Source: Candidatus Acidiferrales bacterium (GTDB lineage Bacteria; Acidobacteriota; Terriglobia; Acidiferrales; UBA7541). Taken from it: a stretch of 64,000 nucleotides of DNA. Shown piece after piece: positions 58,551-61,805 of the stretch. A program made the translations under genes and the position numbers. The number at the start of each line of letters is the position of its first letter. Position 1 is the first letter of the stretch. The notes under the pieces were generated by a model, which was not told the origin of the DNA, made no database searches, and saw nothing but the letters and a program-made list of their open reading frames with translations. The stretch spans positions 4,599-68,598 of the forward strand of contig DASRQU010000061.1 in the NCBI GenBank assembly GCA_035696345.1, written 5' to 3'.

Positions 58551-59570
58551 CTATCTCCCCGCGGCAACCATGGCGATGGCAGGCTGTAAACCCTTCATCA
58601 TGGCGGCGAAGCCTGGCAGATCGAGGGATTGCGGACCGTCAGACAAGGCGCGCTCGGGGCAAGGATGGACTTCGACGATGATTCCGTCGGCGCCGATCGC
58701 GACCGCGGCGCGCGCGGCAGCCGGAACCAGGCTGCGGCGTCCCGTGGCGTGAGAGGGATCGACCACGATGGGCAAGTGGCAAAGTTCCTTGGCGAGAGCC
58801 ACGCCCGCGAGGTCGAGAGTATTCCGCAGCTCCGCGTCAAACGTCTTGATTCCCCGCTCGCACAAAACCACATTGGGGTTTCCGCCCGATAGCAAATATT
58901 CCGCGGCCAGCAGCCATTCTTTAATCGTGGCCGAAGGACCGCGCTTCAACAAAATCGGTCGCGGCACGGTGGCAAGTTTTCGCAGCAGCGGATAATTCTG
59001 CATGTTGCGCGCGCCCACTTGCAGCATGTCTGCGTACTCGACAACTGCGTCGAGGTCTTCTACGCCCATCACTTCGGTGACAATCGGCAGCCCGGTTTCT
59101 TCGCGCGCCTCTGCCATAATTTTCAGACCTTCCAAGCCAAGGCCCTGGAAATCGTAGGGGGAGGTGCGCGGCTTATACGCGCCGCCGCGCAACAGGTGGG
59201 CGCCGGCAGCCTTCACGCCGCGTGCCGTCTGCATCAGCTGATCGCGCGACTCCACCGAGCACGGCCCGGCCATTACTACAAGTTCCGATCCGCCGATCTT
59301 GACGCCCGCCACATCCACGATAGTGCGATCCGGCTGGAGTTCGAGGCTGACCAGCGTGAACGGCTGCGAAATGGAGATAATATCCTCCACTCCGGGCGCG
59401 ACTTTCAAGGCTTCCACTTCGGCGCGGCGTCCCCGGTTTTTTCCGACCACGCCGATCACCGTGCGCTCTGCTCCCTGAATCAGGTGAGGAAGGAATCCGC
59501 ATTCTTTTATTCTGTCCATCACATGCTCCACTTGTTCTTTGGTTGCCGTTGCCGACATATTGACGATCAT
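58551..59570 (-). CDS. aroF: 3-deoxy-7-phosphoheptulonate (DAHP) synthase, class I-beta with N-terminal ferredoxin-like regulatory domain
   Basis: ATG 59570 follows AAGGAGA. The N-terminal domain [32 protein letters not shown], then [29 protein letters not shown] and DPSHATGRR, as in Thermotoga-type DAH7PS. Confidence 0.9.
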
Positions 59571-59640
59571 TTGCAAGTCTCCTTTGGCTTCCTGCTTTGC
59601 TGCGAGCGTTTTTTCAGGAAACGGCTCGCATTCGCCAGGC

Positions 59641-59680
59641 AAAAATAAAAAAGCCGCGGGACCCTTTGGGTTCTCGCGGC
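59641..59680 (-). terminator. Intrinsic terminator inside the aroF leader (attenuator segment 3:4)
   Basis: The minus strand reads GCCGCGagaACCCaaaGGGTccCGCGGC followed by TTTTTTATTTTT. It ends 70 nt upstream of the aroF ATG. Confidence 0.75.
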
Positions 59681-59718
59681 CAGTTCTGGGATTCTTTCGC
59701 GCTTTCTAACTTTTCGCT

Positions 59719-59811
59719 TTACCTCGTCGTGCGCGCGATCCGCCCCTGGCCGCTTCCCACCCAAGGGAAGCGGTACGTAAAGGCGAACCAATAATAAGAG
59801 TTTGAGTGCAT
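59719..59811 (-). CDS. Candidate 30-aa leader peptide of the aroF attenuator (MHSNSYYWFAFTYRFPWVGSGQGRIARTTR)
   Basis: Hand-translated from the minus strand: ATG CAC TCA AAC TCT TAT TAT TGG TTC GCC TTT ACG TAC CGC TTC CCT TGG GTG ... AGG TAA. Eight of codons 6-17 are Tyr, Phe or Trp. The ORF overlaps the 1:2 hairpin. No obvious SD. Confidence 0.65.
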   Translation of the reverse strand: MHSNSYYWFAFTYRFPWVGSGQGRIARTTR

Positions 59812-59821
59812 TGCGAGAGTC

Positions 59822-59850
59822 AGGATACGCAGCTATATACTGATTGTCAA
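59822..59850 (-). promoter_or_regulatory. Candidate sigma-70 promoter for the aroF leader (TTGACA-17-TATCCT)
   Basis: The minus strand reads TTGACAatcagtatatagctgcgTATCCT. The predicted TSS is only a few nt before the leader ATG, which would make it a near-leaderless leader ORF. This is a sequence match only. Confidence 0.35.
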
Positions 59851-59894
59851 GTTTTTTGGGATTCCGCCTGGGCGCGCGAAAAACCTGCATTTCA

Positions 59895-59920
59895 ACACAG
59901 AGGACACAGAGGACACAGAG
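59895..59920. repeat. Short tandem repeat, 9-mer ACACAGAGG x 2.9
   Basis: ACACAGAGGACACAGAGGACACAGAG in the ANTAR-aroF intergenic region. Confidence 0.8.
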
Positions 59921-60070
59921 AATAAGGATGAGAAAAACCGAGGACCTGATCTAACGTTTCTGAAATCGCGGCCCTGCCATTTTTTTCGGGGTTTCTCCTT
60001 TCTTCTCTCTTTGTTCTCCGTTAAAGCTTTTAATCTTTGTTCCGGCTCGAACCGAAACGGTTGGCCCAAA

Positions 60071-60796
60071 TTATTCTCCTGTGCCGCGCCGTACGTCCTC
60101 ACTCAGCACAATCGCCTCGGAAACTTCTTTCATCGATTTACGACGTTGCCGGCTTTGGCGTTGAATGGTGAGGTAAGCCTCTTCCTCGGTAAGCTTTAGC
60201 TCGCGCTGCAAAATTCCCTTGGCGCGCTCCACGAGCTTGCGCGTCTCCAATTTTTCGGAAAGGTGCAGGTTTTCGCTTTCGAGGCGCGCCATTTCAATTT
60301 CCGCGCCCACCAGAAATCCGATCGTCGTGACCAGCATGATTTCGCGTTCCGTATACACATGGGGCTCGCGGTTCTGCAGGTTGATCACGCCGACGATCCT
60401 GCCGCGGCACATTACCGGCACAGACAAAAATGCTTCGAACCTGTCTTCCGGCAAATCCTTGAACAGTTGAAAGCGCGGATCCTGCGAAGCATTCACCGCC
60501 ACAGCGACGGGTTTCCCGTGTTCGGCGACCCATCCCGTAATGCCCTGCCCCAGCCGAAGCTTGAGCCGATCCACGACATCGGGATGCGCATTTTTGGAAG
60601 AGCGCAGAATCAATTCTCCCTCTTCCAACGCGTACAGGAAGCAGGAATCGCAGCTCACGATCGAAGCAGCGAATTCCACGATCTGCGAAAGGACCTCGTG
60701 CAAAGGGTCGGCGGCGGCCATACGGCTGGCCATTTTATGAATGAAATCAACTTCCGGGTTCGGTTGCATGTCTACTTTTGTATGCTCGGGGTTCAC
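60071..60796 (-). CDS. GAF-domain / ANTAR-domain RNA-binding antitermination regulator
   Basis: GAF motifs (CFLYALEEGELILRSS...GQGITGWVAEHGKPV, SVPVMCRGRIVGVINLQN). The C-terminal ANTAR is LETRKLVERAKGILQRELKLTEEEAYLTIQRQSRQRRKSMKEVSEAIV. Start is GTG 60796 or ATG 60769. Confidence 0.85.
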   Translation of the reverse strand: MNPEHTKVDMQPNPEVDFIHKMASRMAAADPLHEVLSQIVEFAASIVSCDSCFLYALEEGELILRSSKNAHPDVVDRLKLRLGQGITGWVAEHGKPVAVAVNASQDPRFQLFKDLPEDRFEAFLSVPVMCRGRIVGVINLQNREPHVYTEREIMLVTTIGFLVGAEIEMARLESENLHLSEKLETRKLVERAKGILQRELKLTEEEAYLTIQRQSRQRRKSMKEVSEAIVLSEDVRRGTGE

Positions 60797-60926: not shown

Positions 60927-61805
60927 TCATTCTACTGCGCTTCTTTTGCGCTGCAAAATTTCGGCACTTTGCTGCGCGGCTTCGCTGACGAGATACCCCA
61001 TTTTCGGATGGGTCGGTTCCATATCAGGCTCGAGTCCATATTCGCGGAGACGCTCGCTGGTTGTGGGTCCTATCGAGATGATCGCCATGCGTCTGAGCGC
61101 TCGGAGCAACGATGCTTGCTGGCTCATTTCAGCCGCAATTTTCAAGAGGTGATCGGCCTGTGTCGCCGTCGTGAATAAGATCACGTCTATCTCATTGTTT
61201 GAAATTGCTACTACCGCCGAGCATAGCGGCGCCTTGTCCTCGGGTAACGCCCATTCGTAGACAGGGACGGACGTAACGTGCGCGCCGCGTTCGGCCAGGC
61301 CGGCAATTAATTCCTTGCTGGAAATTCCGTACTCCTGAAGAGCGACGCGGCGGCCCTCCAATGGAATAGTTTCCGCTGTGTCGTCCAAGGCACGCAGGAG
61401 TTCGCGCCAGGTATTTGGCTCAGGCGCGCTGACGGCGACGGGAACATTCCATTCGCGCAGCACGGCCAGAGGTTTCGGCCCGCGCGCAACCACCGTAATT
61501 TTCCTGAGCTCCGCCAAATAGCTTTCCAGAGGATAGGCAGTTTCAATAACTTTCGCGAGCGCTCGCGTCCCGACGCCGGTCAGAAAGATAATCATGTCGA
61601 AGCCGCCGGCGAAAAGTGTGCGCGCGAAGGCCAAAGCGTCTGTGTTGGTTTCAAGAGGAACTTCGCGCATCGAAGGCGCAACGGTGGCCACGCCGCCGTA
61701 CGTGGTGATCAGCTTGCCCATTTCAGTCCCGCGGCGGCTTTCGAGTGAAAGCACTCGCAGCCCCGCAAACCCGTTCGATGATTTTTCAGGTTCCATAAAC
61801 GTCAT
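60927..61805 (-). CDS. hemD: Uroporphyrinogen-III synthase
   Basis: Two-lobed HemD-like pattern: GLRVLSLESRR...GGVATVAPSMREVPL, DMIIFLTGVGTRAL, DVILFTTATQ and ISIGPTTSERL. Confidence 0.7.
   Translation of the reverse strand: MTFMEPEKSSNGFAGLRVLSLESRRGTEMGKLITTYGGVATVAPSMREVPLETNTDALAFARTLFAGGFDMIIFLTGVGTRALAKVIETAYPLESYLAELRKITVVARGPKPLAVLREWNVPVAVSAPEPNTWRELLRALDDTAETIPLEGRRVALQEYGISSKELIAGLAERGAHVTSVPVYEWALPEDKAPLCSAVVAISNNEIDVILFTTATQADHLLKIAAEMSQQASLLRALRRMAIISIGPTTSERLREYGLEPDMEPTHPKMGYLVSEAAQQSAEILQRKRSAVE

Follow-up and report, generated by a model that had tools for sequence, protein, structure and literature searches.

Our comparative analysis of a 64-kb stretch of DNA from a Candidatus Acidiferrales bacterium of the phylum Acidobacteriota (hereafter the window) examined an RNA element upstream of the gene for 3-deoxy-D-arabino-heptulosonate 7-phosphate (DAHP) synthase. 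With a probability that we put at about 85%, this element is a classical ribosome-mediated attenuator which sets transcription of the DAHP synthase gene by the supply of charged tRNA-Phe, tRNA-Tyr and tRNA-Trp. As judged from sequence comparison, it is most likely a tri-aromatic, probably leaderless attenuator of a type I-beta DAHP synthase and a member of a widespread, undescribed set of leaders. Leader and gene are read on the minus strand, and all window features given below lie on that strand. The gene (58551..59570) encodes a type I-beta enzyme of 339 amino acids with the domains PF00793 (DAHP_synth_1) and PF18152 (DAHP_snth_FXD), which aligns end to end with the Thermotoga maritima DAHP synthase (1RZM/3PG9; E = 5e-100). 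Its N-terminal domain (PF18152) is ferredoxin-like and of the regulatory, allosteric type, as the initial annotation of this DNA had proposed.

The elements of the attenuator, their conservation, their mutual exclusivity and their covariation were computed here from upstream regions collected in two scans. A scan of species-representative genomes with the enzyme as query yielded 80 loci, and a scan of metagenomes yielded 80 further loci, including L081 (79% protein identity). The closest relatives are Terriglobia metagenome-assembled genomes (MAGs) near Candidatus Acidiferrum, represented by L001 and L002 with 89% and 90% protein identity, respectively. The leaders of the window, L001, L002 and L081 constitute the window type, or window clade (four sequences), and 17 leaders were aligned for the main acidobacterial family, from which the covariance model R1 was built.

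A leader ORF rich in aromatic codons

The leader open reading frame (ORF; 59719..59811) is placed between the predicted promoter (59850..59822) and the ATG of the gene at 59570. It comprises 30 codons plus a stop, encodes MHSNSYYWFAFTYRFPWVGSGQGRIARTTR and is conserved in L001, L002 and L081. The regulatory run formed by codons 6-17 (YYWFAFTYRFPW; 59761..59796) contains three Tyr, three Phe and two Trp codons. The initial annotation had reported this 30-codon ORF with eight aromatic residues among codons 6-17, and re-reading of the sequence confirmed it, together with every other element quoted there, at the positions given. Within the 64 kb of the window, the leader is the sole mini-ORF on either strand with at least six aromatic codons out of 12.

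Comparable ORFs recur upstream of orthologous DAHP synthase genes. Mini-ORFs were scored if they began with ATG, contained at least six aromatic residues per 12 codons and lay no more than 300 nt upstream of the orthologous gene, with the antisense strand and dinucleotide-preserving shuffles as controls. The sense strand carried such ORFs at 30 of 79 loci and the antisense strand at 1 of 79, and 0.06% of the shuffled upstream sequences passed. At the metagenome loci, at least five aromatic residues in 12 were found in 36 of 70 cases. Phe, Tyr and Trp are jointly present in 60 of 62 leaders, in which aromatic amino acids account for 33% of the residues, and nearly every aromatic leader is followed by a hairpin and T-run with an energy of -14 to -29 kcal/mol. 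The carriers of these leaders are mainly Acidobacteriota.

Several features indicate that the ORFs are constrained as coding sequences. In the 17-sequence alignment, gap runs are divisible by three in 31 of 40 cases inside the ORFs and in 8 of 42 cases downstream of them, and across leaders both Phe and Tyr are encoded by either of their synonymous codons. The hairpin loop of L001 lacks 1 nt, which puts the C-terminal half of the peptide out of frame, and the nucleotides of this part are nearly invariant. Hence, the 5′ half of the ORF appears to matter as codons and the 3′ half as RNA.

Competing RNA structures and a proposed mechanism

The leader of the window contains four segments with alternative pairings. 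Segment 1 (59765..59790; codons 8-16), which sits within the aromatic codon run, is the 5′ arm of the 1:2 hairpin and contributes an outer stem of 12 bp and an inner stem of 9 bp. Segment 2 (59736..59758) provides the 3′ arm of this hairpin, and its core GCGGCCAGGGG (59753..59743) is at the same time the 5′ arm of helix 2:3. Segment 3 (CCC-AGAA-CUGGCCGC; 59676..59690) is the partner either of segment 2 in the antiterminator or of segment 4 in the terminator. The intrinsic terminator (59641..59681) consists of a stem-loop (59681..59653) and the T-run TTTTTTATTTTT (59652..59641). A simple terminator scan missed it, probably because of internal bulges in the stem.

The 9-bp hairpin CCGCTTCCC-ttgggt-GGGAAGCGG (59773..59750), which the initial annotation had described as 1:2, is the core of a longer hairpin of 21 bp (59790..59736) with an energy of -32.8 kcal/mol (z = -4.25; equalled by none of 200 shuffles), and the corresponding hairpins in the relatives of the window reach z = -3.5 to -5.8. 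The terminator stem (59681..59653) has a loop of 3 nt and an energy of -18.7 kcal/mol (z = -3.2). We also recovered the proposed complementarity of GCGGCCAG (59753..59746) to CTGGCCGC (59683..59676), with an additional GGG:CCC pairing after a 4-nt bulge. A comparison of the competing folds, which had been suggested along with these elements, gave isolated energies in constrained folds of -32.7 kcal/mol for 1:2, -20.8 kcal/mol for the 2:3 duplex and -18.2 kcal/mol for 3:4. As modelled, the energy order 1:2 > 2:3 >= 3:4 is the hierarchy required of an attenuator. Furthermore, the strongest duplex that the terminator's 5′ arm can form with the upstream region has an energy of -28.1 kcal/mol, compared with -18.8 +/- 2.6 kcal/mol for shuffled sequences, of which 4 in 1000 matched it. 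The upstream partner in this duplex (59763..59737) is exactly the 3′ arm of hairpin 1:2, and the two pairings are therefore mutually exclusive. In the constrained fold, the loop of the antiterminator contains an inner hairpin, UCGCGC...GCGCGA (59697..59738), which holds the leader's stop codon. The box AGCGCGAA, which pairs with UCGCGC in this hairpin, is conserved in all four window-type leaders, and the inner hairpin would serve to stabilise 2:3 or as a pause site.

An alignment of related upstream regions, likewise suggested in the initial annotation, showed that the aromatic run is conserved and that the stems carry compensatory changes. In the four sequences of the window clade, 96% of the cells of helix 2:3 are paired, compared with 26-46% when the partner is slid, and the helix includes three compensatory pairs, a number reached by 5 of 500 shuffles. 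One of the changes in L081 is an A-U to G-C exchange in the 8-bp core, by which GCGGCCAG:CUGGCCGC becomes GCGGCCGG:CCGGCCGC. The outer 1:2 stem is likewise retained at this locus, built from different nucleotides (GCUUCGCC:GGCGAAGC; -32.5 kcal/mol, z = -5.8). The terminator of the window clade has 6 invariant outer base pairs and an inner stem in which changes are compensated.

To relate these structures to translation, we used a footprint model in which the ribosome covers P-12..P+15 nt, the RNA ends at the terminator stem and the minimum-energy fold is taken. In this model, the antiterminator wins only with the A site at codons 6-15 (YYWFAFTYRF), and the terminator state is obtained elsewhere, including the stop codon. 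When the same simulations were applied across the family, many loci remained in the terminator state at every ribosome position, and the outcome hinged on the pairs of the T-tail. According to the initial annotation, a ribosome at the stop codon would cover segment 2. This part of the scheme had to be revised: a ribosome whose A site holds the stop codon (59721..59719) reaches back only to about 59736-59739 and thus leaves segment 2 (59753..59743) uncovered, and termination would instead follow the re-formation of 1:2 behind the ribosome.

For the leader, we infer as follows where transcription starts, that translation is leaderless, how the ribosome stalls and how amino-acid supply acts. Transcription would start at the leader AUG (59811) or a few nucleotides before it, and translation would begin without a Shine-Dalgarno (SD) sequence. 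If all three aromatic aminoacyl-tRNAs are ample, the ribosome would pass the aromatic codons and proceed to the stop at 59719, and the 1:2 hairpin (59790..59736) would re-form behind it and sequester segment 2. Segment 3 would then pair with segment 4, and the polymerase would terminate at the T-run (59652..59641). If any one of the aromatic aminoacyl-tRNAs is scarce, the ribosome would stall in codons 6-15 and cover segment 1, so that GCGGCCAGGGG could pair with CCC..CUGGCCGC once segment 3 has been transcribed. With 2:3 formed, there would be no terminator, and the polymerase would enter the DAHP synthase gene. Feedback inhibition of the enzyme via its ferredoxin-like domain would represent a second, faster tier of control. 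The proposal of the initial annotation, a trp/phe-type attenuator with the three end products of the pathway as regulatory codons, is thus supported by conservation, coding constraint, covariation and energies.

Related leaders and their initiation

Most acidobacterial leaders share three conserved segments, namely segment 1 (UACGCCA(G/A)(C/U)UCG), segment 2 ((C)GAGUGGCGUUGG) and the terminator (CCCACUCG-loop-GAGUGGG-UUUU; in DNA form CCCACTCG...GAGTGGG). In this main family, all cells (100%) of the 3:4 terminator are paired (23-52% when slid; three compensatory pairs), as are 91.6% of those of the 2:3 antiterminator (29-47% when slid; five compensatory pairs, reached by 7 of 500 shuffles) and 82% of those of the 1:2 anti-antiterminator (33-52% when slid). 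Unguided folding of the family with RNAalifold returned 1:2 plus 3:4 as the consensus ground state. The covariance model R1 found full-length sense-strand matches directly upstream of the gene at about 68 of the 160 loci, and all of these matches hold in-register aromatic ORFs. Three leaders assigned to the main family by this model (L030 2836-2980, L045 2855-2983 and L106 1078-1189) contain only 3-4 aromatic residues and may be weakened or decaying attenuators.

At E <= 1, R1 missed the window, L001 and L002 and matched L081 marginally (10.9 bits, E = 0.6), which indicates that the window leader has the architecture of the main family and a divergent type of sequence. The two types precede the same gene in the same phylum, share the peptide core Y/F-R-F/Y-(P)-W and have the same order of promoter, putatively leaderless aromatic ORF, 1:2, 2:3 and 3:4, but their segments 1-4 are unrelated in sequence. 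The aromatic codons of the main family occupy the loop that separates segments 1 and 2, with the stop codon directly adjoining segment 2, whereas leaders of the window type have these codons within segment 1 and their stop codon far past segment 2. The shared peptide core alone suggests a putative common ancestry of both types.

The Arg within the aromatic run is retained in most acidobacterial leaders, and its codon varies synonymously between CGA, CGG and CGC. In the main family, the codons of this core are located in the 1-2 loop and take part in no consensus helix (alignment A2, columns ~41-54). These observations would fit a translated leader in which the core [FY]-R-[FY]-W (in the window, Y-R-F-P-W) serves as a TnaC-like nascent-chain arrest sequence or sensor, which replaces tRNA starvation as the signal or adds to it. 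We consider this unlikely. L041 has Ser and L044 has Pro in place of the Arg, the leaders of Desulfuromonadales, Limnocylindria and Methylomirabilota lack the motif and are nevertheless rich in aromatic residues, and in the window the Arg codon (core = codons 13-15, 59767-59775) lies within the segment 1 stem. Moreover, enrichment for all three aromatic amino acids is what a hungry-codon model predicts. The conserved Arg-containing core is, however, the main feature left unexplained by the simple hungry-codon model of attenuation. In TnaC, a free amino acid is sensed in the ribosome exit tunnel, and trans-acting roles have been reported for Sinorhizobium rnTrpL/peTrpL. There is an outside chance that the [FY]-R-[FY]-W core gates or tunes arrest, for example by tunnel sensing of free aromatic amino acids, or that the terminated leader RNA or the peptide acts in trans. 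If so, the leader would integrate several inputs to control entry into the shikimate pathway across a soil phylum that is both major and poorly studied.

Aromatic leaders that look unrelated precede the same enzyme gene in Desulfuromonadales/Geobacter (L054, L060, L071, L075, L079, L111, L137 and L150), in Limnocylindria of the Chloroflexota (L056, L069, L073, L077, L128, L144 and L151) and in Methylomirabilota-like loci (L042, L076, L080 and L149). Examples from outside the Acidobacteriota are MNPVSAYAAYYFFFWFGFYFRPSARGCV, MSHYFYFRCPA and MTLDRTARYYFWFSFPGLCPLGSGCRMR, and each of these leaders is followed by a strong terminator. L075 comes from a cultured isolate, Geomonas propionica Red259. 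The predicted set of aromatic leaders upstream of DAHP synthase thus comprises at least four bacterial phyla. At loci of the Blastocatellia/Pyrinomonadaceae type, an aromatic leader ORF (e.g. ...SSFAFSFYFYFSY...) was detected about 1.1-1.3 kb upstream of DAHP synthase (L004 1811-1948, L005 1562-1666, L006 1875-1976, L008 1711-1821, L010 1859-1975 and L084 169-255). In L004, this leader precedes a gene for prephenate dehydratase (PDT + ACT), which implies a leader-pheA-DAHP synthase operon.

Transcription of the window leader is predicted to start from a sigma-70-like promoter (TTGACA-17-TATCCT, 59850..59822), which matches the consensus at 10 of 12 positions. The -35 hexamer TTGACA (59845..59850) is invariant in L001 and L002. 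The -10 hexamer TATCCT (59822..59827) ends 10 nt ahead of the A of the leader ATG, which at 59811 starts 11 nt past the hexamer. No SD sequence was found upstream of the leader ORF, and the DAHP synthase gene itself is preceded by AAGGAG (59579..59584), 8 nt upstream of the ATG at 59570. The initial annotation overlooked both the closeness of the leader ATG to the -10 box and the missing SD sequence. Since strict matching of -35 and -10 elements missed most acidobacterial promoters, it was replaced by a positional profile of the -10 element only, together with a control. SD-like sequences precede 8 of 57 family leaders compared with 55 of 57 enzyme genes. In 43 of the 57 leaders, the distance from the end of a -10-like hexamer to the leader ATG is 5-11 nt, with a sharp peak of the spacing at 8-9 nt (31 of 57), and the control profile ahead of the enzyme ATG has no comparable peak. 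Because its ATG is close to the predicted -10 box and no SD sequence is present, the window leader is probably translated from a leaderless or near-leaderless mRNA, as in most of its acidobacterial relatives. Leaders of the Geobacter type carry a normal SD sequence, AGGTGG.

The missing SD sequence would also be compatible with an ORF that is not translated at all. The conserved region would then be an RNA switch, riboswitch-like or T-box-like, that binds a protein or a ligand, and constraints on its sequence would have produced the aromatic codons incidentally; alternation between terminator and antiterminator needs no ribosome. Such a switch is very unlikely in the light of the frame-preserving indels and the synonymous codon variation, and of a start codon which is always present and at a fixed distance from the -10 box. 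Furthermore, leaders from four phyla with unrelated nucleotides have only the aromatic ORF and the terminator in common, and no Rfam family matched 59300..60200 at E <= 10, be it a leader family (Trp_leader, Phe_leader, His_leader, Leu_leader, Thr_leader and others), T-box or riboswitch.

A number of observations weigh against the window element being a tRNA-responsive, leaderless attenuator. All acidobacterial loci compared are MAGs, and the covariation within the window clade rests on four leaders and hence on few events. In the main family, helix 1:2 shows no compensatory pairs in the 17-sequence alignment. Two loci with 73-75% protein identity (L082 and L083) have no aromatic leader upstream of DAHP synthase, so the element is dispensable and has been gained or lost over short evolutionary times. 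If pairs with the T-tail are included in the footprint model, the antiterminator range narrows to codons 12-14, and this result is thus model-dependent. A truncated co-transcriptional proxy was uninformative, with the unpaired 5′ arm pairing upstream in nearly every state; in about 12 loci, it freed segment 3 with the ribosome at or near the stop. The start context is not conserved inside the window clade, as L001 and L002 contain a 26-nt insertion between the -10 box and the leader ATG (alignment A1, columns 91-116; window 59811-59822). Their 5′ untranslated region is about 30 nt long and has a weak purine tract only, with no good SD sequence. The start of leader transcription at or near the AUG is a prediction from the position of the -10 box, and we know of no demonstration of leaderless translation in Acidobacteriota. 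Finally, the minimum free energy of the whole leader is not significant (z = -1.29), as is expected of a switch with competing folds, and the individual hairpins are significant. This last value would suit a chance ORF beside an ordinary terminator, with no regulatory element being present. To that explanation we give practically no weight in view of the enrichment and conservation statistics, the covariation and the significance of the individual hairpins.

Genomic context, known attenuators and significance

The DAHP synthase gene appears to be monocistronic, as the next gene is convergent. Between the T-run and the SD sequence of the gene is an inverted repeat (GCGAGC-16 nt-GCTCGC, 59602-59629), which L001 lacks and L002 retains only in part. 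Directly upstream of the leader promoter lies a gene for a GAF-ANTAR protein (60071-60796), which is preceded by the HemD (uroporphyrinogen-III synthase) gene (60927-61805), and this pair is also found in L001. Downstream of the ANTAR gene and ahead of the leader promoter, TCTGTGTCC is repeated in tandem in about 2.8 copies (59895-59919).

ANTAR is an RNA-binding antiterminator domain, and with its gene (60071..60796) being adjacent and on the same strand, the GAF-ANTAR protein might bind the leader hairpins and block termination on a GAF-ligand cue. The 1:2 hairpin of the window even has a hexanucleotide loop. Known ANTAR targets consist of two tandem hairpins with hexaloops, the second of which overlaps the terminator. 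In contrast, the leader has a single hairpin with the loop UUGGGU, the length of which is not conserved (it is shorter in L001), and a terminator loop of 3 nt. Moreover, the gene neighbours the leader elsewhere only in L001, and not in L002, L081 or about 150 other loci. We regard such control as extremely unlikely and rejected it on the grounds of synteny and hairpin anatomy; the ANTAR protein apparently has an RNA target other than the DAHP synthase leader.

One of the closest known systems is aroR-aroF of Corynebacterium glutamicum, in which attenuation of a DAHP synthase gene through a leader peptide has been demonstrated by experiment (Neshat et al. 2014, after the accounts in PMC11802643, PMC4046766 and PMC7356990). 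The initial annotation, which held that leader-peptide attenuation of such a gene was not a standard annotation, had therefore overstated its novelty. In these descriptions, a leader peptide with aromatic codons lies directly upstream of the DAHP synthase gene, as in the window (PMC11802643), and stalling at aromatic codons raises expression on top of feedback inhibition of the enzyme, as proposed here. As described there, aroR contains a short Phe-Tyr-Phe run and responds to limitation of Phe and not of Tyr, whereas the window leader has eight aromatic codons of all three types. C. glutamicum belongs to the Actinomycetota and the window to the Acidobacteriota, and aroR was compared by description only. 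The AroF enzyme of C. glutamicum is of type I-alpha, and that of the window is of type I-beta with a ferredoxin-like domain.

With trpL and pheL (pheA) of Escherichia coli, the window element shares the four-segment logic with regulatory codons in segment 1, the alternative pairings 1:2, 2:3 and 3:4 and an intrinsic terminator plus T-run that precedes the first structural gene. Unlike these leaders, in which the codons form a run of one amino acid, the window leader mixes the codons of three. In addition, its stop codon is about 25 nt past segment 2, so that a terminating ribosome would leave segment 2 unmasked, and it has no SD sequence and an ATG which adjoins the promoter. Leaderless leader peptides have been described in other phyla: 14 were predicted in Deinococcus deserti (PMC4007540), and in mycobacteria leaderless polycysteine short ORFs serve as leader peptides (bioRxiv 10.1101/834739). 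As in the geometry predicted for the window, these ORFs are at the 5′ end of the transcript or 1-2 nt from it, lack an SD sequence and have the -10 element just upstream. They differ from the window leader in amino acids, target genes and phylum, and their geometry is backed by transcription start site or ribosome-profiling evidence, whereas that of the window is predicted only.

A scan of eight related loci at Rfam gathering scores gave no leader, T-box or riboswitch matches, and the element is not in Rfam 15. In the literature that we searched, DAHP synthase genes of Acidobacteriota, Geobacter or Chloroflexota were nowhere described with an aromatic leader; most subscription journals were outside this search, and an earlier prediction is possible. 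In an earlier survey, almost none of the predicted acidobacterial attenuators had an assigned function (PMC2965389). For annotation, the gain comprises about 68 of 160 related loci with a leader of the main family, four leaders of the window type and analogues in three further groups, none of which are in Rfam. In concept, the element extends a textbook mechanism and the C. glutamicum aroR precedent and involves no new mechanism.

Overall, Acidobacteriota are among the most abundant soil bacteria, and cis-regulatory RNA is hardly known in this phylum. The geometry of the leader predicts that leaderless translation takes place in Acidobacteriota, and the element offers a concrete, testable mechanism for control of the committed step of aromatic amino-acid synthesis. 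Judging from its codon run, one and the same leader would sense all three aromatic end products, in keeping with DAHP synthase standing first in their common pathway.

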